DNA from: Escherichia phage vB_Eco_Lzu_P1
DNA: 44,712 nt
Sequence record: PQ295795
Strand: one strand, 5' to 3'
Made by a program: the position numbers and the translations under genes
Notes under the pieces: generated by a model
The model's input: the letters and a program-made list of their open reading frames with translations, nothing else
Database searches by the model: none
What the model was told of the DNA's origin: nothing
Part shown: positions 18,590 to 30,661 of the stretch, piece by piece
Numbering within the stretch: the stretch's first letter is position 1
How the letters are laid out: the number at the start of each line of letters is the position of its first letter

Positions 18590-18620
18590 AAAAGGGGCCG
18601 TATGGCCCCTTTTCTCATTT
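18588..18620. terminator. Bidirectional intrinsic terminator between convergent blocks
   Basis: AAAAAA-GGGGCC-gtat-GGCCCC-TTTTCTCATTT; A-tract on one side, T-tract on the other. Confidence 0.65.
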
Positions 18621-20438
18621 CTCCGCTAACTTACTTTCTAACGCCTCAACCTTCGCCGCCAAATGCTGAACAGTCGCGATTAGATCAAGTAGTAGGACGT
18701 TTTCATCTAATGCCAGAAACTCTTTACCGGTTGCGTTGGTGTACTTGCGGACATACTGCGGGTCGATCTCTTCCAACTGCTGCGCGATAAAACCACGTCT
18801 AACCGTCTCTTTTTTGTCGTAGTTATAAACAAAGGACGAGTACTCCATAGTCATAACGTTATCGTACGCAACTTGAGTATCGATCCGGGCGATATCATGC
18901 TTCAGCGCCCTATCGGATACCGGGGACTTTGCGAAAATATAGTTAACAGTCCCTAAGTTGTTGCCGAAGGTGATATCGTATGCTTCGGGGTTGAATGTAG
19001 TGTTTCGAACGCTATCGCCGTTAGGCTGTGTACCGGACGCCAAATCATAATCAAAGACCTGCGCAATCATAGCATGGGGGTGCGAGTTACCGGAGGGCGG
19101 GTGGATCAGCGCGCCGAACGAAATAAAGTTACGCCACCCGCCACCACTCGTCCCCGCCCCGCCTCCAACAAAGCCGACGTGTCCCGAGTATTGGCTGTCC
19201 ATCCATGTATTCGCAAGGGTTACGTAGGTATTACCTGGCGACGCCGAGGTGGACGATGGATTCAGTCCTTTGTTGAAAATAATCTTGCCATCATATTTAA
19301 AGTCCCACGACGGCGAGGTACTTGGATCGAGGGCGTTAACGGTTGCCAAACTGGTCCAGGCGTCTACGTTATTACGGCCCTGAAGCTGAATCGACATTCT
19401 GTATTTTTCGACCCCGGCGACGTTCATAGAGGAGTCAATTCGACCGCCGTATACTTCTGCGCCATTCGCCGGGTCTGACGCGTAATTATTGCGTAAGCCC
19501 CAAAGCCCCACGTCGTCAAGACCGCGCCACACCCACCCTTTAGTCGCAGCGTCCAGGGGGTTTACGGGGTCCGCACCTACGCGAAGCGGTCCGGGCGGCA
19601 TAAGGTTAGCCCACGACGCGCCTTTGTCCGCAAGCCCCGCGAGGTTGCCGGATTTTGTTAGCAGATTGTCGGGGTTTACGCTTTGCGCCCATTCTTCGGC
19701 CTGATCGCGAAATCCCTGCGCGGCAGTGCTGGCGGCTTGCGCTTCAGCCTTCGCGGCGTTGGCCTCGTCGCGAATAGCGCCGGTGTCAGTCTTGATCTGG
19801 TTAGTCTGGTTTTTGATCGCCTGCGTATCAGCCTTAATCTGATCAGTCTGCGTTTTTATGGTATTAGTTGCGTCGCGAATGCCTGCCGTCTCTGCCTTAA
19901 TCTGATTGGTGGCGTCGCGAATGCCAGCCGTCTCAGTCTTGAAGCCTTCGGCCTCATTGCGAAATCCTTGCGCTGCTGCTTCAGATGCCGCGGCTTGTTG
20001 TTGCAGGTTGCGCATTTCAACGGGGTCAACTTGCTTCATCAATTGCGACAGGTAGCCCCAAGACATACCCTGCATAACTTGCCCGTTCGGCAGCGTTACC
20101 GTGATTTCTTCTTCGTCTCCGAAGATCGCACGCCAGTTGTTTTCGTCCGCGAGCATCAAGCGCAACGCTTTCTGTGCCTGTACTGTTACGCCCATCGTTG
20201 CCAGCGACATGGTGTCGCGCTTAACGCCATCCCACGCAAGGCCTGCTGCCGTTGGGCCGTCGAACGGCAGCACCAGCGTAAGCGCGGTGTCGCTTTCGAC
20301 TGACGCGATAGCAACAGTGTATGGGACTTGCCCCACTACCAGCGATAAGAAGTCGCCAGCTGTAAACGAGGTAAACGTCGTGCCTACCCCGACAACCGCC
20401 TTGCTGTTATTCGTTACGGATAGTGTACCCGCTGCCAT
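18615..20438 (-). CDS. Tail fibre with repetitive coiled-coil shaft and C-terminal intramolecular chaperone (peptidase S74-like) domain
   Basis: Start at second ATG (GAGGA RBS); shaft repeats TAGIRDATNQIK...; C-terminal SDRALKHDI ... FIAQQLEEIDPQYV resembles auto-cleaving chaperone domains of endosialidase/T5 L-shaped fibre. Confidence 0.65.
   Translation of the reverse strand: MAAGTLSVTNNSKAVVGVGTTFTSFTAGDFLSLVVGQVPYTVAIASVESDTALTLVLPFDGPTAAGLAWDGVKRDTMSLATMGVTVQAQKALRLMLADENNWRAIFGDEEEITVTLPNGQVMQGMSWGYLSQLMKQVDPVEMRNLQQQAAASEAAAQGFRNEAEGFKTETAGIRDATNQIKAETAGIRDATNTIKTQTDQIKADTQAIKNQTNQIKTDTGAIRDEANAAKAEAQAASTAAQGFRDQAEEWAQSVNPDNLLTKSGNLAGLADKGASWANLMPPGPLRVGADPVNPLDAATKGWVWRGLDDVGLWGLRNNYASDPANGAEVYGGRIDSSMNVAGVEKYRMSIQLQGRNNVDAWTSLATVNALDPSTSPSWDFKYDGKIIFNKGLNPSSTSASPGNTYVTLANTWMDSQYSGHVGFVGGGAGTSGGGWRNFISFGALIHPPSGNSHPHAMIAQVFDYDLASGTQPNGDSVRNTTFNPEAYDITFGNNLGTVNYIFAKSPVSDRALKHDIARIDTQVAYDNVMTMEYSSFVYNYDKKETVRRGFIAQQLEEIDPQYVRKYTNATGKEFLALDENVLLLDLIATVQHLAAKVEALESKLAEK
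19750..19960 (-). repeat. Internal tandem repeats in the tail-fibre shaft
   Basis: Repeated gcgtcgcgaatgcc...gtctc...ttaatctg units encoding about 11-residue repeats (ETAGIRDATNQIK / QTDQIKADTQAIK). Confidence 0.6.
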
Positions 20439-20459
20439 AGCTGAATCCTCATAAATTGG

Positions 20460-20487
20460 TTGCATTAATGGTCGAGCGGTGTAATAC
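20460..20487 (+). promoter_or_regulatory. Sigma70-like promoter for the plus-strand lipoprotein cassette
   Basis: TTGCAT - 16 nt - TAATAC; ATTGGTTGCA motif at 20455-20464. Confidence 0.4.
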
Positions 20488-20519
20488 TAAAACTCAACCA
20501 AATATAGGAAATGATACCA

Positions 20520-20743
20520 TGAAAACTTTAATTATGATTTGTGCGGTTATGTTGTCCGGCTGTGCTGTAGAACGCAACAACGGCGATTGCATTACTATGG
20601 CTTACGGTAGCTGCATGTTGCGCTACGTTGACGGGCAAAAAGTGCCCTCCGGGGATGTGGACTTGCGATTCACTGGGCTGTCTGCCGATAGTGACGGCAA
20701 TTTTTCCGGCACTGTTTCAGTTAAATCACGGGAGTGGAAGTAA
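20520..20743 (+). CDS. Small lipoprotein (74 aa), candidate receptor-blocking superinfection-exclusion protein
   Basis: Signal peptide with lipobox MKTLIMICAVMLSG-C; AGGAAA RBS; size and position near receptor-binding genes recall T5 Llp / T1 Cor-type lipoproteins. Confidence 0.55.
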
Positions 20744-21708
20744 TGGGCGCTGGGATACTTATCGACTACAACGACGGAAGGCCGCGCATGGAGATAACCG
20801 CAGGACTTCGCGCGCCGTCATTCTGTACCTCATTCTATCAGCGCTGCCAGTCTGATAAGACGCTTACTATTAACACTCAGCTAACGCCAGGGTCAGATCT
20901 GGTCGTCGCGCTCACAAGCCCCGTTGAAGTTATAGAAGTATTCGACCAGACACTGGTCTTGCCCGACCCTTTCTACGTCACCTCAGTACAACGTAACGGG
21001 GATGGCGGAATCACCTTGCGAGGTGAAGACGCATATGGCGCATATAGCGGGCTTCCAACATGGGGCGGGGTGATCATGGAAGTGTTGCCGGTTGGTTCGC
21101 GCAACGCAGGGTTACTGGTGGCGAACTCGACGGACTTCACCGCCATATCAAATGTATCCAGGCTAATGACCTGCCAATATGCGCAGCGCGTGTGGGTGAA
21201 CGGAAGTATGCCGTTACCTGTAGGCGGTGTCCCATTCGCGCGCTGGGACGACGGAAACGTGTCGGTCGGCTTCGATGGCGGAAGTATTATCGTCCGTAAT
21301 GCGTCCTATGGCGGGATTGACGACGTAGGCGCTGCCGTTGAAATGGACCTGGTTATATTCAACAATACGCCACCCACCCCTGGAAACGGCATCACCATGA
21401 CAAACAACCAGGGTCAGGTCACGTTCTCAACAGTGAATAAGCCATTTGTTTATGACCGCCTTATCTATATCGGCGGCGGCGATCAGTACATAGGCAATAG
21501 CCTGGTCCAGCTTTCGTATACCGGCGCGCTCATTGAGAACAACGGCGGCTACAATCACGTTCGAATGAACGGGATTCGAATGGCAGGCGGTAATGTGCGC
21601 ATCGCCAAAAACCGGGTAATCGGCAACTATTCACGGCAGCAATTCCAAATGCCGGGTAAAAATATTGCAGTACCCACCCCGTTACTCGTAATTCCTAACA
21701 TCTATTAA
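20743..21708 (+). CDS. Glycine-rich beta-type protein (321 aa), function unknown; co-transcribed with the lipoprotein
   Basis: ORF track 20734..21708; ATG at 20743 overlaps lipoprotein stop (TAATG); opposite orientation to surrounding tail genes. Confidence 0.5.
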   Translation: MGAGILIDYNDGRPRMEITAGLRAPSFCTSFYQRCQSDKTLTINTQLTPGSDLVVALTSPVEVIEVFDQTLVLPDPFYVTSVQRNGDGGITLRGEDAYGAYSGLPTWGGVIMEVLPVGSRNAGLLVANSTDFTAISNVSRLMTCQYAQRVWVNGSMPLPVGGVPFARWDDGNVSVGFDGGSIIVRNASYGGIDDVGAAVEMDLVIFNNTPPTPGNGITMTNNQGQVTFSTVNKPFVYDRLIYIGGGDQYIGNSLVQLSYTGALIENNGGYNHVRMNGIRMAGGNVRIAKNRVIGNYSRQQFQMPGKNIAVPTPLLVIPNIY

Positions 21709-21736
21709 AAAGGGGCCGGATGGCCCCTTCTCCTTT
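21707..21736. terminator. Bidirectional intrinsic terminator
   Basis: AAAAA-GGGGCC-ggat-GGCCCC-TTCTCCTTT; same stem as terminators at 18594, 31675 and 37365. Confidence 0.6.
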
Positions 21737-24700
21737 ACCACGTCCCCACTTTCACCCTACCCCCGCCCGGTAATGGCACGTTAATGCCGGTGGCGTCGAT
21801 CTGTACCGACCCTCCAGAGAATCCGAAGTTACCAGTAGTAGCGAACAAGTTGCCTCGTACCGTTACGTTGTTGAACTCCGCCCCGCCGTCCTTCTGGATG
21901 CGCCAGCCGCTGTGACCCGGATTCCAGTTATTCGACTGCAGCGTGTCCGTGATCTGCGCGAAGTTGATAGACGCGTTCTTGATGCGTGCGGTGTCAATGT
22001 ACACCTGACCGCCGTCAACGATAAACGCGGACGAAAGCGACCCATTAGATGGGTGCATGATGTAGAACTGGTCCGCCTTGAACGCGATGCGGGATTTAAC
22101 CGCGCCACCTTCCGCAACAACTGAAAGCTGCATACCGGCATCGTAGTAAGCCCCGTTATACGTCACGCCAGCCTTAAGGCTATATGTGGCGCTGCCACCA
22201 GCATGGTTAAACGAAGACGTCATCTTCTGCTCGATAGCGGCAGACTGCTGACCGAACTGTGCCGCGACCTGGGTCTTGTACTCCGCCAGTGCGCCAGCTA
22301 CGTCTGCCGTTGCCGTTTGTACCTGCCGGATGGCGGCTTCCTGCTCCCCAAACTTAGCGGCGACAGTTTGTTGGTACTGGGCGAACGCTTGTTCGTGCGT
22401 GCTTTGCGCTGTCTGCAACGTGTGGATTGACGCCTCCGCATCATCAAGTCGTGTGCCGATCAACGTTTCCAGTTGCGCTACTGCCTTGTGGGCGTCCGTG
22501 GCAACGTTATACGCCACCTTGATTTCCGCATAAATACCCTTGTACTCGGCGCGGGCGTTGAACAATTGCTGCGCGTCGGTGAGCATCGCCTCGTAAATAC
22601 CCTGCGGGATCGTGTCGATTGCTTCCTGGAAGCGTTTACCATCCTCGGAAGTCAAGAACTCGTCATCAAGCCCCTTCATGTACTCGTCAACTTTGTCACT
22701 CACCTGCCCTTCAAACGGGGCCGACCAGTCCGACAGGTTGCCGATTTTATCCGCTACACGGGCGCGCAACTGCTGGTAAATTCCGAACTCCAGCGACGTT
22801 TGCGCGTACTCCGCGCCAGGATACGGGACGTTTGTTAAGAACTTCCATTCCGTTTCGCCCGTCTTGCGGACTTCAAGCTCGGTGTAAGAAATATCCGTCG
22901 CGGCGTTGTTGTGGTTCCACTTCCATAGAATTTGATGCAGACCCGAAATCGCGCTGGTGATGATTGGTGCGTTAAGCCCACCGAGGCGACCTTCCACCGG
23001 CGTGATGGCGGACGACACCCACGGGGATGAAATCTCGCCCATACCGATCGCACGGACGCGCGCCTGATAGTTTCCGGAGAACACGTTAGGAATGTGCGCG
23101 CCGTTCGATGCCGTGCGCGGGATATTCACCCAGTCGTTACCCCACTGGACCGCCATATTCTGCAGGCTTGTACGCCGCCACTGGATTTCATACACCACGG
23201 CATCCTTCACCGGCGGGAAAACAATATCCACGTTGGTGATTAGCTGGCCTTGCGATGAGATCTGCGACGGGGTAATGGTAACGGATTCTGGCCCCGTCAT
23301 TACACCGTCTGGCACTTGCGTGAAGATGCCAGGATCAAGGCGAGCGCCATTATCAACGGCGTCATATTTGCTATCGTTGTATTCAATCCCGCGCACCGAG
23401 AAAGTGCTCGTAGAGTCGTCATACTCCAGATCGGTGATGCGGAATTTTTGCAACTGGATATCATCGCCATCAACGCAAAACGGTTGGTCTGGAATCGGGT
23501 CGTCATCCAGTGCGGTTTTTAGCGTGACCTTGTTGCCGTTGACGCTGGCGATCTCGCGAGTCTCCACATTTCCGCTATCGGTGCGCACCAGGAACTTATC
23601 ACCAGGGCGGAATGTGATTTCGCTGTCTGTGTTAAGCACGGTACGCGTGCCAGGGTCTGACAACAGGCGACCGCCGCGAGTCTCGAATCCGCCAGAAATA
23701 TTAGTATCCGCGATCGCGACTACGCTACCAGGAATAAAGAATAGCCCCTCCATGCCAACCTTAAAGCTGACCTGCTGGTCCAACTGGTTGGAGATTAGCG
23801 CCCAGTGTCCGCGGCGTTGCGCTTCAGATTCGCGCGTACAGCCGATCGCCGTTATATCCAGACGGTTAATCTTATGGCGGCGCACCAGTTCGACGCGCTG
23901 GCCCGTTGCGATAGCGTCATCATAGTGGTTTTTCGGGTTGCCGTATGCTACCGCGAAAGTGGAGTACCGCGTTTTCTGGCTGCCAGATGCGTAGTCGAAT
24001 CGACCATCAATAACCGAGGCGTTGGTGATAGTGTGCGACACTGCTGCGACCGGTTGGTCACTGACGATATTCAACATTTGGTTTCCCCACCAGGTCATCC
24101 CGGCGAAGATGGCAGCTAAATCCTTAAGCACGGTCCAGGCGTCTGTCTGCGACTGGATGTACATATCATTCTTAAATCTGATTTCCCGTCCGCCGTTGCC
24201 GTCGCTGACCAACTGATCGCAGCGCTGCGCGATCTGGTAGAGCGCGTACCGGTTCAGCATTTGCGGTTTGATACGCCGACCGAGGCCGAAGCGCTCAGTA
24301 ATACAAATATCGTACCAGTGCCACGCAGGGTTATCTGTCCATGCGCGTTTAAACGTGCCGTCCCAGTCCCCGGAATAGGTATGATTGATCGGGTCGTAGT
24401 TGTTCGGTATTAGAACTTTGCGACCTTTGCACTTGATGGACACGCGCGGGATGTTCTGGAACGCTTTAGCGTCGAACTCCACGAACAACAGCGCGGTTAG
24501 CGGATAGCGCAGGCGGGCGTCAATAATCTCAGTGATGGATTGCACCTGGATATCATTAACCACTTTCGCCGATGTGGAGTCTGCCGTTATGCGGTGCACC
24601 TCCACGCGCCAGCCGGTGTTAACGTTCGGAGGTAATTCGATGCGGTGGTCGCGCTCATACAGCGACATTGTTTTACCAACGGCGGCGAAAGTAAACTCAC

Positions 24701-25181
24701 GCGGGTCCGCGTTATCCGTATACACAACGATCTTATAGTCGATGCGCCCGCCCACCAGGTCGCCATTATCTTCGTTTGTGTACAGGGCCGGAATGCCGAT
24801 GCGAATGCGCACGGCGTCCAAACTGGTGTCGTTAATCTGGCGCACCCACGGCGTGCCGTTTTCCAGTTTTACGCCGACAGATTGCTCACTTTCCACCGCT
24901 GAAAATCCGTGGATCACATCCTGGTGCTGTGTTCCGGGGCGGAACTCCACACGCGCGCCTGGGAAGTTTTCAGACAGGTCTGCATTCTGGATCGGTGTTC
25001 CGTCCAGATATACGCGCCGCCGTAATTCGTTAGGGTCTGGAATACCTTCGAACTCACCTTCTCCCAGCGCAAGCAAGATGCGGATTTTAGCCAGCGAATG
25101 CAGGCTATCGGGTGTCTCCTGTGGGGTGTGCTGTTTGCCACCGCCGCCTTTATGGCCTGTGACGTCATAGACAATCGTCAT
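21735..25181 (-). CDS. Central tail fibre / tip attachment protein (lambda J-like host-specificity protein)
   Basis: 1148 aa, last gene of an M-L-K-I-J order; conserved J-type segment LRYPLTALLFVEFDAKAFQNIPRVS...NPAWHWYDICITERFGLG. Confidence 0.8.
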   Translation of the reverse strand: MTIVYDVTGHKGGGGKQHTPQETPDSLHSLAKIRILLALGEGEFEGIPDPNELRRRVYLDGTPIQNADLSENFPGARVEFRPGTQHQDVIHGFSAVESEQSVGVKLENGTPWVRQINDTSLDAVRIRIGIPALYTNEDNGDLVGGRIDYKIVVYTDNADPREFTFAAVGKTMSLYERDHRIELPPNVNTGWRVEVHRITADSTSAKVVNDIQVQSITEIIDARLRYPLTALLFVEFDAKAFQNIPRVSIKCKGRKVLIPNNYDPINHTYSGDWDGTFKRAWTDNPAWHWYDICITERFGLGRRIKPQMLNRYALYQIAQRCDQLVSDGNGGREIRFKNDMYIQSQTDAWTVLKDLAAIFAGMTWWGNQMLNIVSDQPVAAVSHTITNASVIDGRFDYASGSQKTRYSTFAVAYGNPKNHYDDAIATGQRVELVRRHKINRLDITAIGCTRESEAQRRGHWALISNQLDQQVSFKVGMEGLFFIPGSVVAIADTNISGGFETRGGRLLSDPGTRTVLNTDSEITFRPGDKFLVRTDSGNVETREIASVNGNKVTLKTALDDDPIPDQPFCVDGDDIQLQKFRITDLEYDDSTSTFSVRGIEYNDSKYDAVDNGARLDPGIFTQVPDGVMTGPESVTITPSQISSQGQLITNVDIVFPPVKDAVVYEIQWRRTSLQNMAVQWGNDWVNIPRTASNGAHIPNVFSGNYQARVRAIGMGEISSPWVSSAITPVEGRLGGLNAPIITSAISGLHQILWKWNHNNAATDISYTELEVRKTGETEWKFLTNVPYPGAEYAQTSLEFGIYQQLRARVADKIGNLSDWSAPFEGQVSDKVDEYMKGLDDEFLTSEDGKRFQEAIDTIPQGIYEAMLTDAQQLFNARAEYKGIYAEIKVAYNVATDAHKAVAQLETLIGTRLDDAEASIHTLQTAQSTHEQAFAQYQQTVAAKFGEQEAAIRQVQTATADVAGALAEYKTQVAAQFGQQSAAIEQKMTSSFNHAGGSATYSLKAGVTYNGAYYDAGMQLSVVAEGGAVKSRIAFKADQFYIMHPSNGSLSSAFIVDGGQVYIDTARIKNASINFAQITDTLQSNNWNPGHSGWRIQKDGGAEFNNVTVRGNLFATTGNFGFSGGSVQIDATGINVPLPGGGRVKVGTW

Positions 25182-25795
25182 TCGTTCAAATCCTCGGTTA
25201 CGATTCCGGCTGAAATAATAGCGCCGCCGATCTCACGCTCGCCCCATAATACACCAAGCGCCGTACCTTGCGCGGTCGTGTTTACAGGGCCGCCGAACGC
25301 ATACGACGCTTTGTTATCCACGTCCTGCCGGGTCTGCAATCCTTTCGGCTGCGGCGACAGCAATTGCATAGCACCGCCCAGCGCAAGCGACATGCCAAAC
25401 GAAAATGTAGCCGTACCGATAGCGGCAGCGGTTGCAGCCGAAGCCCCGAAAGCGGCAGTAGCAAGTCCGCCAGTATAGAACGACGCCACTACAATCGCGA
25501 CACCCGCCAGCAATTGGCCCAGTCCGCTTTTTGCCCCCGTCATAACCGGCGCGATGGTGACGACGCGGTTACCGTGGAACTCGCCAAGCTCATCATAACC
25601 GGTCATCGTGTGGTTGCCTTTGCGCACCTTGAACATCATATTGTCCAGGTGGGCCGACATTAAAAAGTCTTGTAGCCCTGGCAACTTCACACACAGGCCG
25701 GTGATGCCTTCTCCCGGTGTGAAGCAGTCCAGCTTATGCACTTTACCAAAACGACGCCCTAAGACGCCGTACAATTTAAACGTGGTCATTGCCAT
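25178..25795 (-). CDS. Tail assembly protein (lambda I-like)
   Basis: 205 aa with Gly/Ala-rich hydrophobic C-terminal half; position between K-like and J-like genes. Confidence 0.65.
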   Translation of the reverse strand: MAMTTFKLYGVLGRRFGKVHKLDCFTPGEGITGLCVKLPGLQDFLMSAHLDNMMFKVRKGNHTMTGYDELGEFHGNRVVTIAPVMTGAKSGLGQLLAGVAIVVASFYTGGLATAAFGASAATAAAIGTATFSFGMSLALGGAMQLLSPQPKGLQTRQDVDNKASYAFGGPVNTTAQGTALGVLWGEREIGGAIISAGIVTEDLNE

Positions 25796-26526
25796 TCTGT
25801 GATATTCCCTGGTAGGTCTTTATGACGTACCCATTTAACCACATTGTCGCGGAAAAATCCTGCCCGGAAGGGAATCACGCTCGACAGGCTGCCGTAGATA
25901 TGGTGTAGTAGTTGGTTGCCCGGAAGGAATATCCCAGCGTGGTTAGGCACAGGCGCGCTAATCTGCATGATGACCATTGCCCCCGGCGTATTCTCCTCGC
26001 ATTCCCTGAAGCCCGCACCGTACCAATTATCCATATACAGATTTTCGCCTGTCTCCCACCAGTTATACGGCACGCGGAAGTCTGGCAGGTTTACACCCTG
26101 CTTTTTGTGCCAGTCCATGACGAGGCCATAACAATCTGTAATTCCGAGAACAAATCGGCGGCCTACCAGCGGCGGGTCTTCAGGGTCGATCTCGATAAAG
26201 TCGCCATATTCGTTAGTGATGGTCCAGACTACGCCGCTGCCGTTGCATCCGTTAACGTCGCCCAGTGAGGGGGTAAGCTCTCTCTGGCCCGGATGCGAGT
26301 GGACTACGCGCACGACGTCGCCCATATCCTCGGCATCCATCCAGGCCATATCACTAATCGTGAATGCGTCTTTACGTGAACGCACGCCGGTCGGGTCTTC
26401 GAATACGTTCATGCACGGGACAAATACTTGTTTGCGGCCCACCATGACAACCAGGCCACAGGCTTCTTCAGGCAGACATGCCGCAACGTGCGCGGCGATA
26501 TCGCTTTTAACCTTTTTCGTTAACAT
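25786..26526 (-). CDS. Tail protein with JAB/MPN and NlpC/P60 domains (lambda K-like)
   Basis: EACG ... HSHP JAB-type metal site followed by a Cys/His peptidase-like region; gene order. Confidence 0.7.
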   Translation of the reverse strand: MLTKKVKSDIAAHVAACLPEEACGLVVMVGRKQVFVPCMNVFEDPTGVRSRKDAFTISDMAWMDAEDMGDVVRVVHSHPGQRELTPSLGDVNGCNGSGVVWTITNEYGDFIEIDPEDPPLVGRRFVLGITDCYGLVMDWHKKQGVNLPDFRVPYNWWETGENLYMDNWYGAGFRECEENTPGAMVIMQISAPVPNHAGIFLPGNQLLHHIYGSLSSVIPFRAGFFRDNVVKWVRHKDLPGNITEWQ

Positions 26527-26528
26527 GG

Positions 26529-27317
26529 CTACCCCTTGATTAATTTGGACCCAGGAAAACCACCGAAGTCCAGCACCGCAGCTTTAGGATCCGCAAGCCC
26601 TTGCCCAAAACGAAGATAGCAGTCGGACAAACAGCCGCCGCATCGGTCCATATTCATCGCAATGACTTCATTACCACGCTCGTCGTAATACTTGATCCCA
26701 GGCTTCGCAAGGTTCCACGTACACCCGTCCCCGCTGGCGTACTTCCCGTTGAGCGCCCATTCGCACATATTCATGATTTGGCGACGGGGTACGACCTGCC
26801 CTTCCATATCCGCAGGTGAGGATAGTGCGAAGGTGATTTGCTTGCCAGGATTGCGCCCGACCTGCGAGTCGATGTAATACTCCTGAACTCGTTTCTGCGT
26901 CGGGTCTGGATCTGTCCCGTTGTCCAGGAACTTCGCGAACGTATCAATGATCTCAACCTTCGCGCCCAGTAGCTGGTCGTGGTTCAGCGACAGCCGGGTG
27001 ATAACTCCTCCAATATCGACAATGGTCAGTTGCGGTTCTGCTGCCGTTGATGTGGAGAAGTTGAGGCCGGACAAATCGAAGGGCCAAAATTCGAACTCCT
27101 GCCCGCCGAAGAAGATGGATTTTGGCTTCAGCTTATCCTCGTCACCCCCAGCGGCAGCAATATCCTCGGCAGTGTGCGGAATAAAGCAGTAATGAAAATA
27201 GTGGTGGCCCGCGCCGATCGCACCGTCTCCTGGTTCCACGTCCTGCGCGTCAATGTGAATCAGGCGAACGCGGCCCGATGGGTCAAAGCGCGTCGCCTCA
27301 CGATATAATTTATTCAT
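26529..27317 (-). CDS. Minor tail protein (lambda L-like) with C-terminal cysteine cluster
   Basis: 262 aa; C-terminal CEWA...C..C...CGGC cluster consistent with the Fe-S site of L-type proteins; gene order. Confidence 0.65.
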   Translation of the reverse strand: MNKLYREATRFDPSGRVRLIHIDAQDVEPGDGAIGAGHHYFHYCFIPHTAEDIAAAGGDEDKLKPKSIFFGGQEFEFWPFDLSGLNFSTSTAAEPQLTIVDIGGVITRLSLNHDQLLGAKVEIIDTFAKFLDNGTDPDPTQKRVQEYYIDSQVGRNPGKQITFALSSPADMEGQVVPRRQIMNMCEWALNGKYASGDGCTWNLAKPGIKYYDERGNEVIAMNMDRCGGCLSDCYLRFGQGLADPKAAVLDFGGFPGSKLIKG

Positions 27318-27913
27318 CTTACAAACCCGATAGCAGTCTTAAGGGTGGCGGATACCGTTGCCGTGTAGTGTCCGTTGTCAGTGTACGACAAGCTCGAGCG
27401 CTCGACCACGAATAAACCTGTTTCGCCATCCGGCGCGGTGACGATGAACGGTTTTACGAAGTGCCCGCGAAGGAAGTTGTAAACCAGTTTAGGGTTGCAC
27501 CACTTGTCGGTAGTCAGTCCTATGAATTGCACGGGGAACTGTTTCGTTTCGGCGTTCGGGCCGTCCGCAATGTTCTGTCCGTAACCGTTACCGAATTGCA
27601 ATTCCTCGGACCGGAAAGCCAACTGCACGTCTCCGCCGCCTTGCAATTGCATGTGCCAGTAATAGGGCCATTCGTTTGATCGCGGGTCGTGTGCTTCTAT
27701 TAGCTCATATACCGCACCGGATTTCGTTGGACCGGCCCAGTTATCCACCAGAGTGATGACGGTGTTAGAGTTGAATGCCGCAATTTTTCCGGTGTAGTCG
27801 TTGCCGTCGATGCGGGCGAATACGCGTACCTTCCCGACCTCGCTCAAGAACGCCGTTCCCGCGCCCGTGACGGTCTTACTTCCGTTCGTTAGTGTGATTG
27901 TACCTTGTGCCAT
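27314..27913 (-). CDS. Minor tail protein in the lambda M position (199 aa) sharing an N-terminal motif with the tail fibre
   Basis: Gene order after tape measure; MAQGTITLTNGSKTVTGAGTAF resembles MAAGTLSVTNNSKAVVGVGTTF of the 18615..20438 fibre. Confidence 0.55.
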   Translation of the reverse strand: MAQGTITLTNGSKTVTGAGTAFLSEVGKVRVFARIDGNDYTGKIAAFNSNTVITLVDNWAGPTKSGAVYELIEAHDPRSNEWPYYWHMQLQGGGDVQLAFRSEELQFGNGYGQNIADGPNAETKQFPVQFIGLTTDKWCNPKLVYNFLRGHFVKPFIVTAPDGETGLFVVERSSLSYTDNGHYTATVSATLKTAIGFVR

Positions 27914-27949
27914 AGAAAATCCCCCACGATGGATGTGGGGGCCATTTTA

Positions 27950-30591
27950 TCATCGTTTGTAAAGTACACCACCCGGTTTCGTCGCCTTCACGATCTCGGC
28001 CTTCACCGCCTCGGTGATTTGCTTGCCGAACGCCTGCGCGGTACGTGGGTCCGGCCCGCCAACACTGGTATCCGTCTTACCGGTCCCCGTGTAAACGTTA
28101 GTCGTCACGACCATACCACCGCCTGCGCCAGACGCGGCAACGCCCAGTTTCCCGTCCGGCCCGCGCTTCAGTGGCATGATGGCCTCGGGTCCAGCCTCAC
28201 CCATCAACCCAGCGCCCTTAGCGAACGCCTGGACGCCATAACTGAAAAAGGTAGGCTGGCTTACCACTTTCCCCGAATAGGCCGCGAGATTGCCTCCTGC
28301 GTACGCTCCGCCGTCCGCATTCTTAGTAAGGCCAGAGAAGATAGCGCCGAACAATCCGTTTTTGCCGCCGTCACCACCGAAAGCGCTAACGATGGACTTG
28401 AACGCCTGCGAGGTAGCCAGCTTGATTAATTCGCTCAGGATGGACTTAACCATATCCTTTGCGTTCAGCTTGCCAGTCTCGAAAAACTCGTTCATCGTGT
28501 CCTGCATAGCGCTGAATGTGAATTTCGTGAGAGACGCCATCTGCGTATATCCGTTACCCATCTCATCCACGCTATCCTTAAGCCCGCGACTGAATCCATC
28601 CCATAACGAGGCGTTAGCGCCGGTCTGTGCCTCCTGCACTTCTCGCAGCTTAGACACCGCCTTGTCAATATCGGTATCGTTAGCGCCAACCCGCTTCAGG
28701 CGGTCAATTAGCTGCAATTCTTCGCGCAGGTTTGCCGCTTCGCGAGTGGAAAGCGCATAGCCCGCGGCGGTGGCTTTTAGTTCGGCGTTCTGGTTCTTAA
28801 CGAAGGCATCGATCTGCGCGTGCGCCTTAACCTGCCTCTCTTTCGCGTCCAGCAATTTGGCTTCTTCGACGATCTGCTCGCGCACTTCCTTCACGCGTCC
28901 AAATTCCACCATCTGCTGCTTTTCGGCTGCCGTTAGCGCTCTTTCTTTGCTCGCAGCGATTAACTGCTCATTGTCGGCGATCAGCTTGTTTAGGGCCGCT
29001 TGAGCGCGTTGCGTGCGGGTCTGCGTCGATGCGTTGGCTTCGATCTGTTTGCCGGATTCTCGAAGCTGGGCCAGTTCGCTCCGTGCGACTTCCAGCATTT
29101 TCATACCGGCATCCACGCGAACAGCCGCGGCCTTCTTCGGGGCCGGGTCTTTGTAACGCTCGTTTACCTGCTTAACTGCCTCAGCAAGCTCTTTCTCATC
29201 AATAACGCCGCGCTTATTCAGCAAATTGAGGCGGGCGATCTCGTCGGCGCGCTTCTTCGCGTTAGTTGCGTACTCCTTCTCGAACGCGGCGCGGTCGCGA
29301 GCGGTGCGGTTGGCCTCCTCGTTCGCCTTTGCTGATTCGTCCGCGGCGCGGGCGTTGTCTCGCTCCGCACGGTTACGCAGGGTGAGCGACGCCACTACTT
29401 TTTCCTGGGCGACCAGTTCGCTGTAAAGCATGTTAATACGTGCTTTCTGCGCTTCAGTCATTACCCCACCGGCAGCGTTAACCGCTTTCATCTCGGCATA
29501 GTAAGCCGTAGTCATGCGCTGCAGTGATTCGCGCGCTTTCATCTCCGACTCATTGGAGGACTGCGCGCGGCCCACATCCAGGATAGCGTCCCACATAGAT
29601 TTAGCCGCCGATGTGACGACGTTCATCGACCGCTCAAGCGTGCCCATGTTCGCCTTGATATCGTTGGTCATAGTGGTGAACGATGCCGCGGCGGTTTTGT
29701 TCGCCAGCGCAACTGCGTCTGTCTCACGACCCATATCCACAAGCGACTGCACCTGCTGGATCTGCGCTTCGTTTACGACGTGATACTTATCTGCCAGTGC
29801 GCGCAAACCGCCTACGGGGTCAGTTGACAGCTTCGCCACCGCCGCGACCACATCTTCGACCGGCTGGCTGGACACCTTAGAGAAGTCATTAACCACCTTC
29901 GCCAGTGCACCGAAGTCAGCACCCGCCTTCACACCCGCCGCCGCCAGTGACTGAATTGTGTCACGCGTCTTGCGGAATGATCCGCCCATCCTCTCGGCGT
30001 TCTCGGATAGCACCAGGATCTGGTTAGCGGTGAGGCCAGAAATATTACCGGACAGCGCCAGCGTCTTGTTAAGCGCCGCCACTTGGTTTTCCGCGCGGGA
30101 CATAATCGACACGCCAACGCCCATCGTTGCCGTTAATGCAGCGATGCCGATCCCTAACGGGCCGAGTGTGCCGACGACATAACGCAGCGTATTCCCCAAC
30201 CCGCCAAACGCCCCAGTAAGCTGTGGTAACTGCTGAAGCATGACTCGATGCACCGGCATACCCATTTCAAGCGTCACCGCGATATCCTGTAACTGGAATG
30301 CGGCGTTCCGCGATGCGAATCCCAGGTTTTTGGTCGACATGCCTAATCGGCTGGCGAGTCGCTCCTGTTTCGTCATGCCGTCGGCGGCGCGCTGCGATTC
30401 AGTCGCTAACTTTTCCATTCCGCCCGCGGCGTCACCAGTGACCTTTTTCGACTTGCCGAGTGTGTCGTTTAATTTCTTTACTTTCTGTTCTGTGTTCTCG
30501 GATTTCTGCGCAAATGTGTCCAGCACAGTATTGGCCGTTTTAATTTGCGCGACGTCCGCCTTGAGCGTGATGCCCGCAGCCTGATCTGCCA
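27950..30591 (-). CDS. Tail tape measure protein
   Basis: 880 aa, long alpha-helical/Ala-Gln-rich stretches, downstream of the G/GT chaperone; start at ATG 30591 (AAAGGGGGGA RBS) rather than the track start 30631. Confidence 0.8.
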
Positions 30592-30661
30592 TTATGCAGT
30601 CCCCCCTTTTTATGCAGTTGCCGTCGGTCATTGTATCAGCGAATTTAAAACAAACCTTATT

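Follow-up and report, generated by a model that had tools for sequence, protein, structure and literature searches.

Cryo-electron microscopy of the F-pyocins has shown that three side-fibre trimers attach, via an N-terminal domain (named OB by one of three groups) and a stem, to the coiled-coil shaft of the central fibre, that two of the three N-terminal domains per trimer make up a pseudo-sixfold ring, and that the side fibres are not attached to the distal tail protein, Dit (PMC13455828, PMC12874032, 10.64898/2026.02.24.707460). Dit proteins may themselves carry extensions, which take the form of an OB-fold in T5 and of a galectin domain in other phages, and which are missing from lambda gpM (PMC7291167). 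The present analysis concerns a domain found on both the Dit and the lateral tail fibre of Escherichia phage vB_Eco_Lzu_P1 (record PQ295795), whose 44,712 nucleotides are referred to throughout as the window. The 44.7-kb window is that of a Dhillonvirus, a small E. coli siphophage with a lambda-like tail-tip module on the minus strand, and shares 91-98% nucleotide identity with phages HK1, Lzu_P3, JL1 and HK578 and with the BASEL phage Oekolampad (Bas18). Dhillonviruses, which are common coliphages and therapy candidates, are represented in the BASEL model collection; to our knowledge, the mounting of their lateral fibres has not been described so far.

The N-termini of the Dit and of the fibre are a true homologous module of about 75 residues. 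The Dit, in the position of lambda gpM between the tape measure and the gpL homologue, is encoded by an open reading frame (ORF) at 27314..27913(-) with a 199-residue product beginning MAQGTITLTNGSKTVTGAGTAF, and the fibre, of 607 residues, is encoded at 18615..20438(-), beyond two plus-strand genes that follow J, and begins MAAGTLSVTNNSKAVVGVGTTF at the ATG at 20438. The initial annotation had proposed that the two N-termini are clearly related. This is borne out, and pairwise alignment places the similarity far above chance and over approximately 70 residues rather than 22. Residues 1-70 align without gaps, with 27 of 70 positions identical (39%; BLASTP with compositional adjustment, E=1e-9), and the Smith-Waterman score of 114 was not reached by any of 2000 composition-preserving shuffles (26.7 +/- 5.2; z ~17). 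Exclusion of the 22-residue motif leaves a score of 61 for residues 23-80, compared with 20.9 +/- 4.0 for shuffles, none of which reached it. Both copies begin at the initiator methionine with M-A-x-G-T and have 13 of their first 22 residues in common. Furthermore, a profile of 76 family members detects exactly two copies in the window, at 20220..20438(-) in the fibre (E=1.6e-25) and at 27695..27913(-) in the Dit (E=5.9e-23).

The protein in the M position is a Dit in which a single copy of the N-terminal domain is joined to a gpM ring domain. Its core, residues 83-199 (27314..27667(-)), is a ring domain of the gpM type with the tail-tube fold; PF05939 (Phage_min_tail) matches residues 86-187 with 44.7 bits against a cut-off of 39 bits (E=2e-11), and phrog_9922 matches the protein over its full length (E=1.5e-140). 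Further matches to the core are found in the T1 Dit (9l9p_H, E=8.7e-12) and in the F2-pyocin Dit (25vf_6). The position of the gene is likewise typical of gpM, directly after the tape measure (27950..30631) and followed by homologues of gpL (26529..27317), gpK (JAB and NlpC/P60 domains; 25786..26526) and gpI (25178..25795) and by a J-like central fibre (21735..25181), all on the minus strand. The N-terminal domain, residues 1-78 (27680..27913(-)), is a copy of the fibre-anchor β-barrel that lacks the stem, and a linker of 5-10 residues runs from it straight into the gpM domain. The Dit-borne copy is therefore located on a ring protein and not at the head of a trimeric side fibre.

A near relative of this Dit has a deposited structure. 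The Oekolampad protein bas18_0020 shares its architecture and gene context and is 94% identical to it across the full 199 residues; 11 of the 12 substitutions lie within residues 1-75. The bas18_0020 sequence matches chain B of PDB entry 23gd, 'Distal tail protein gp20', which contains two gp20 chains as well as single chains of gp21, the homologue of L, and of gp24 ('J-like tail tip protein'); the numbering and the sequence match identify 23gd as Oekolampad. An assignment of 23gd to Aeromonas phage Avs-1 ('DTP gp20') was considered and rejected, as the Avs-1 entries are 43J* and the Avs-1 Dit has a helical extension. By its 94% identity to gp20 in 23gd, the Dit would be expected to assemble as a hexameric ring that sits between tail tube and trimeric hub. 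The PDB sequence file, the deposited Oekolampad tip included, contains no chain with the sequence of the fibre and no fibre chain that bears this N-terminal domain, and no paper describing 23gd or the N-terminal domain of a Dhillonvirus Dit was found in the literature searched.

The fibre is matched by phrog_1980, 'tail fiber protein' (E=1.5e-122), and its Oekolampad homologue is annotated as 'lateral tail fiber protein'. It is made up of an N-terminal domain in the canonical anchor position (residues 1-78, 20205..20438(-); profile E=1.6e-25), a stem without counterpart in the Dit (residues 79-140, 20019..20204(-)), a repetitive helical shaft, a distal domain and an S74 intramolecular chaperone (Peptidase_S74 region, residues 508-607, 18615..18917(-); PF13884 at residues 508-563, E=2e-11). 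The N-terminal domain is 88-96% conserved across Dhillonvirus loci, and the stem pattern ALRGLNxDKxNWQxVF...TVTLPDGSxFTGPSW is conserved in the family alignment. The shaft, at residues ~150-250, contains the imperfect repeats ETAGIRDATNQIKA and ETAGIRDATNTIKTQTDQIKADTQAIKNQTNQIKTDTGAIRDEANAAKAEAQAA, and regions beyond it align to 8hqz_d, an L-shaped T5-like fibre that matches the protein at E=9e-13 with its C-terminus included. This suggests that shaft and distal modules are common to the lateral fibres of Dhillonvirus and of T5-like phages.

What the Dit and the fibre have in common is a small β-barrel (OB-like) domain of approximately 75 residues. The only model used for it was built with AlphaFold2 on 76 sequences; prediction of the full-length Dit from a 12-sequence alignment gave an unusable model, with a predicted local distance difference test score of 47.7. 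A Foldseek search of the PDB returned nothing below E=0.1, with fold libraries older than 23gd and 25ve, and Pfam has no match on residues 1-80 of either the Dit or the fibre. A HMMER scan with a profile of the two window copies matched 3,989 representative clusters (50% identity level, E<=1e-3); a word-index homology search with the 80-residue domain alone came back empty, which is an artefact of the index. In these profile matches the domain is found mostly at residues 1-75 of proteins of 250-800 residues. It is N-terminal in several PHROG 'tail fiber' families, and where phages are annotated it forms the head of fibres in ES18 and in several phages of Salmonella, Erwinia, Klebsiella, Aeromonas and Pseudomonas. 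In the best 149 representatives, the stem (the next ~60 fibre residues) is present in 111 and the S74 C-terminus in 36, and the Dit core is confined to the Dhillonvirus cluster. It thus appears that fibres normally begin with the domain and its stem as one module, ahead of distal parts that vary, and that fusion to a Dit is a Dhillonvirus peculiarity. A comparison with relatives for modular swapping, which the initial annotation had recommended, accordingly finds the domain at the head of many fibres whose downstream parts differ.

The domain also occurs in giant metagenomic proteins (P0011, 1330 residues; P0012, 1557 residues; P0032, 1632 residues; and others), as tandem arrays of 4-13 copies accompanied by PKD domains or multihaem cytochrome motifs. 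The tandem repeats give sub-threshold Pfam matches to PF05354, the phage head-tail attachment protein.

A link to a solved anchor comes from the F-pyocins. The domain profile (76 domains, both window copies among them) matches residues 5-73 of the F2-pyocin side fibre 25ve at E=2.9e-14. The Dit alone matches the same side fibre at E=2.9e-4, and the window fibre alone gave no match to the pyocin side fibre at E<=10. Residues 7-857 of the window J are homologous to the pyocin central fibre (E=9e-224), residues 895-1100 align to residues 980-1185 of the F2-pyocin central fibre (E=1.4e-17) and to T1 J (E=4e-30), and the window L matches the pyocin L homologue at E=1.2e-29. From these sequence relationships, the fibre copy is probably the anchor of the fibre trimer to the tail tip. 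By analogy with the F-pyocins, the predicted helical shaft of J (residues ~836-990, 22212..22676(-)) is most likely the docking site for the lateral fibre, and we infer that it is the leading candidate. The suggestion in the initial annotation that the two N-termini are a common docking module for attachment to the tail tip is therefore upheld for one copy only: the fibre copy is homologous to the pyocin anchor, whereas the Dit copy has a gpM domain of its own beside it, has no stem and is absent in syntenic relatives.

Natural variants separate the two copies. Outside the genus cluster, the proteins nearest to the Dit core (P0005-P0010) have 122-125 residues, are 56-66% identical to it and consist of the core only, on contigs that are fully syntenic. 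In two such loci, L018 and L019, J is 98-99%, the fibre N-terminal module 94-96% and the C-terminal part of L approximately 90% identical to the window, and the Dit is a protein of 123 residues without the N-terminal domain, its core 65% identical to that of the window. Another locus, L017, combines a short Dit and an L of ordinary form with a fibre that has both domain and stem; ES18 has a gpM-like Dit of 115 residues and a fibre, gp33, which bears the domain and has the annotation 'present in virion'; and the F-pyocin Dits, of 113 residues, contain no copy of the domain. Since the fibre N-terminal module and J are kept where the Dit domain is absent, the two copies are not an obligatory pair.

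The L018 and L019 loci differ from the window in gpL as well, which has 415 residues as opposed to 262 owing to an insertion of ~150 residues after residue ~60 (genes at L018:10362-11609 and L019:6133-7380). No Pfam or PHROG family matches the insertion, which may act as an alternative decoration at the periphery. A weak match (E=1.6e-4) connects it with residues 502-617 of the 'Megatron' tail-tip protein of the marine siphophage R4C (8gtc_M). At the nucleotide level, the window and L018 are 94.1% identical down to 27910, show no match over 27909..27135 and are again 92.6% identical from 27134 to 19896. One junction, at 27910, lies three bases inside the Dit start codon, and the other falls at approximately codon 60 of L. 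These sharp boundaries of identity imply that the Dit gene and the first ~60 gpL codons, 27135..27909(-), have been exchanged as a cassette.

The ratio of nonsynonymous to synonymous substitution rates (dN/dS), computed across 17 Dhillonvirus loci, is 0.107 for the Dit N-terminal domain, 0.069 for the fibre N-terminal domain, 0.033 for the Dit core, 0.032 for the N-terminal part of J and 0.016 for L. The Dit N-terminal domain is under purifying selection, yet it is the least constrained of the tip segments measured. In Pandora71 and bov11C2 this domain is only 68-69% identical to that of the window, compared with 96-97% for the Dit core, 98% for L, 99% for J and 92-95% for the fibre N-terminal domain; its dS, at 0.38-0.44, equals that of the flanking genes, its dN is 10-20 times higher than theirs, and its dN/dS is 0.52-0.59. 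Because dS is at the level of the flanks, the Pandora71 and bov11C2 domain is not an imported segment. The fold-defining residues G4, T5, G17, G19, T20, F22, Y40, L55, G61, P62 and G66 are kept in the most divergent copies. This pattern of rates fits an exposed, host-facing or weakly constrained module rather than an interface locked to a conserved fibre head.

As to the origin of the Dit copy, it begins at the initiator methionine just as fibre N-termini do, its nearest relatives are the N-termini of other fibres, at 45-48% identity, and the phage's own fibre type ranks only 108th of 241. The two copies are 27-41% identical in all Dhillonviruses examined. The most economical account of these sequences would be that the 5' end of a side-fibre gene, contributing the domain but not the stem, was fused long ago to a gpM-type Dit gene.

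Taken together, we hold with moderate confidence that the fibre copy is an anchor, probably on the J shaft, and that the Dit copy is a captured, dispensable and fast-evolving peripheral decoration. The fibre N-terminal domain and stem would anchor the lateral fibre trimer at the tail tip, most likely on the helical shaft of J. The Dit would be built into the tail by its gpM-type ring domain, and since it would be held in this manner, its N-terminal copy would not be needed to dock it. Fusion of a stemless fibre-head domain to the Dit N-terminus would then place six copies on the outer face of the tube-tip junction, as an accessory that can be swapped as a cassette and that is not a required partner of the fibre. 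By analogy, the Dit copy may serve as a host-facing module, for example as an auxiliary adhesin with weak binding to surface glycans.

Several observations weigh against this explanation. The fibre stem does not align to the pyocin stem, even with a profile of domain and stem together, and thus docking on the J shaft is argued from the homology of the OB domain and of J. The glycan-binding role proposed for the Dit copy would be pure analogy. The L insertion of L018 and L019 could in principle replace docking by the Dit domain, which leaves L017 and more distant phages as the cases that lack both. A dN/dS of 0.5 is equally expected from relaxed constraint. Finally, the fibre N-terminal module co-varies with no candidate partner (Mantel tests; r=-0.02 with the J shaft and r=-0.14 with the Dit N-terminal domain); these tests, against the Dit N-terminal domain, the J shaft, the J N-terminal part and L, were all null and are uninformative between the models.

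The alternative that gives the Dit copy a structural role is a docking collar, in which six Dit copies form a ring recognised by the fibre N-terminal domains, by means of the contacts that these domains also make with one another, and would serve as the platform, or a second platform, for the lateral fibres at the tube-tip junction. A Dit hexamer would present exactly six copies, the homologous F2-pyocin domains self-associate into a pseudo-sixfold ring, and in other siphophages side fibres are anchored at the level of the Dit, examples being the ring of Ur-lambda Stf about gpM, the p132 collar of T5 and the monocin Dit (PMC13455828). In L018 and L019, moreover, loss of the Dit domain coincides with gain of the L insertion, which is possibly compensatory. 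However, L017, ES18 and the F-pyocins carry domain-headed fibres with short Dits and no L insertion. The fibre N-terminal module is 94-96% unchanged in the absence of the Dit domain, and is still 92-95% identical where the Dit domain has changed by 31%; the two copies do not co-vary (r=-0.07 and -0.14, in a test of low power), and no fibre chain is recognisable by sequence in the deposited Oekolampad tip structure. A collar therefore seems unlikely, though it deserves to be kept in mind. Still less support falls to a neutral relic, a recombination accident that joined a fibre gene's 5' end to the Dit gene and left a tolerated, functionless domain. The domain is indeed dispensable in close relatives, its dN/dS rises to 0.52-0.59 in one lineage, and its dN/dS across the loci is the highest of the tail-tip segments measured. 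Yet it is intact in ~157 Dhillonvirus records and in all 19 examined loci that carry it, with no frameshifted or truncated copies seen, the overall dN/dS of 0.107 signifies purifying selection, and the fold-defining residues persist in even the most divergent copies; we consider a relic rather improbable.

The remaining two alternatives concern the resemblance itself. The initial annotation had raised module exchange between fibre genes, and the common M-A-x-G-T start with 13 of 22 identical residues might suggest that the module passed recently from one of these genes to the other. The identity is only 39%, however, other fibres are closer to the Dit copy than the phage's own type, and the pair is equally divergent in all Dhillonviruses examined. 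A recent exchange between these two genes is thus not supported, and the idea has very little probability left. Chance or compositional likeness of Gly/Thr-rich N-termini could be imagined for a motif rich in G, T, S and V, but this can practically be dismissed in view of the shuffles (z ~17), the BLASTP E-value of 1e-9, the reciprocal PHROG matches and the profile E-values of 1e-23 to 1e-25.

A bolder reading can be entertained as a tentative and on balance doubtful possibility. The Dit copy could be a functional, host-facing seventh element of the Dhillonvirus adsorption apparatus, either a fast-diversifying glycan adhesin shown six-fold at the tube-tip junction or a mimic of the fibre-anchor ring by which lateral fibres are recruited or parked; in both cases phages would exchange it within a Dit-L cassette, in alternation with the L-borne insertion. 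If this were true, small coliphages would have in the tube-tip junction a second host-range locus that has gone unrecognised.

Neither the decoration of Dits nor the modularity of fibre N-termini is new, and a nearly identical Dit has a deposited structure. In the literature searched, a Dit domain homologous to a side-fibre anchor, the exchange of a Dit-L cassette and the quick evolution of the domain appear to be undescribed. The analysis ties an abundant, uncatalogued fibre-head domain (~4,000 clusters, no Pfam family) to the solved F-pyocin anchor and, for thousands of enterobacterial side fibres, offers a docking model that can be tested. Capture of a fibre-anchor domain by a Dit is a new route within the known theme of decorated Dits and does not overturn current understanding. 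The cassette and the fast-evolving domain provide handles for engineering and for host-range experiments.

The ORF coordinates and start codons of the initial annotation stand, and the strand is minus: both ORFs read on the minus strand, and plus-strand translations at the same coordinates are riddled with stops. Shine-Dalgarno sequences precede both starts, GGGGGA ahead of 27913 and GAGGA ahead of 20438, and an ATG at 20465, which would lengthen the fibre ORF, has none ahead of it. The Shine-Dalgarno sequences indicate that the start codons are correct and that 20465 is not the real fibre start. In several database entries the Dit is 13-19 residues longer, with an upstream start that overlaps the tape-measure gene (P0001, 218 residues; P0002, 212 residues; Pandora71 coding sequence L021:10462-11100). 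The window has no in-frame start upstream of 27913, and the M-A/S-x-G-T N-terminus of the family argues for the shorter Dit.

A perfect 7-bp GC-rich hairpin, CCCCCAC...GTGGGGG followed by ATTTTCT, occupies 27921..27941(-), in the gap that separates the stop of the tape measure (27950) from the start of the Dit (27913). A pattern scan finds it terminator-like on both strands, its 3' arm includes the Dit Shine-Dalgarno sequence, and it is situated just upstream of the L018 recombination junction at 27910. Its folding energy is ordinary for the composition (z=-0.79).

Two plus-strand genes lie between J and the fibre. The first, at 20734..21708(+), encodes a DUF6453 protein that is homologous over residues 4-324 to the receptor-binding protein of Oekolampad (E=2e-188), which binds the LptDE translocon (PDB 9rpt/9rpw/9rqi; PMC12685063). 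From this close homology, LptD is probably the terminal receptor of the window phage. The alignment suggests that the true start of the protein is the methionine at residue 4 (~20743), and the PHROGs label 'membrane protein / moron' looks wrong for this family. The adjoining small ORF, 20456..20743(+), has a lipoprotein signal, MKTLIMICAVMLSGC, and matches PF24052 (Phage_lipoprotein) at E=1.5e-21; its real start is probably an internal ATG rather than the listed TTG. Rtp45, a superinfection-exclusion lipoprotein of related phages, is similarly placed (PMC12685063). Among database records, OQ221563.1 (Acinetobacter phage NJ01) and OQ291023.1 (Salmonella phage Kenya-K19) have tail modules ~93-95% identical to the window, which raises the possibility of unreliable host labels or of a host range wider than assumed.

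In comparison with known systems, the nearest counterpart is the domain at the N-terminus of F-pyocin side fibres (PyoF13; PA0643/PA0646; PDB 25ve/25vj), which is homologous to both window copies. The pyocin side fibre and the window fibre each carry the domain at the extreme N-terminus of a trimeric fibre, on a lambda-like tip with homologous J, L and M. The F-pyocins differ in having a stem without detectable homology to the enterobacterial stem and a domain-free Dit of 113 residues, and docking on the shaft, which has been shown for them, is inferred for the window phage. Lambda gpM, the T1 Dit (9l9p_H) and ES18 gp23 resemble the window Dit in their homologous ring domain and gene position; however, these proteins, of 109-117 residues, are free of extensions, whereas the window Dit has 80 additional N-terminal residues.

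As in the window Dit, a small β-barrel or OB-like domain accompanies the ring domain in T5 pb9 (PDB 4JMQ). The extension is C-terminal in pb9 (PMC7291167) and N-terminal in the window Dit, and the pb9 domain, unlike that of the window Dit, is not known to be common to the phage's own fibre. PDB searches gave no sequence match of the window Dit or its domain to pb9, and the likeness is therefore one of working principle and not of family. The galectin or carbohydrate-binding extensions of other Dits are a further parallel to the decoration of the window Dit. Lastly, the N-terminal ring of Ur-lambda Stf and the p132 collar of T5 show that small β-domains at the N-termini of fibres or anchors can oligomerise into rings around the tail tip (PMC13455828); these domains are Ig-like, assemble as dodecamers and belong to separate polypeptides, whereas the domain described here is OB-like and is a covalent part of the Dit.

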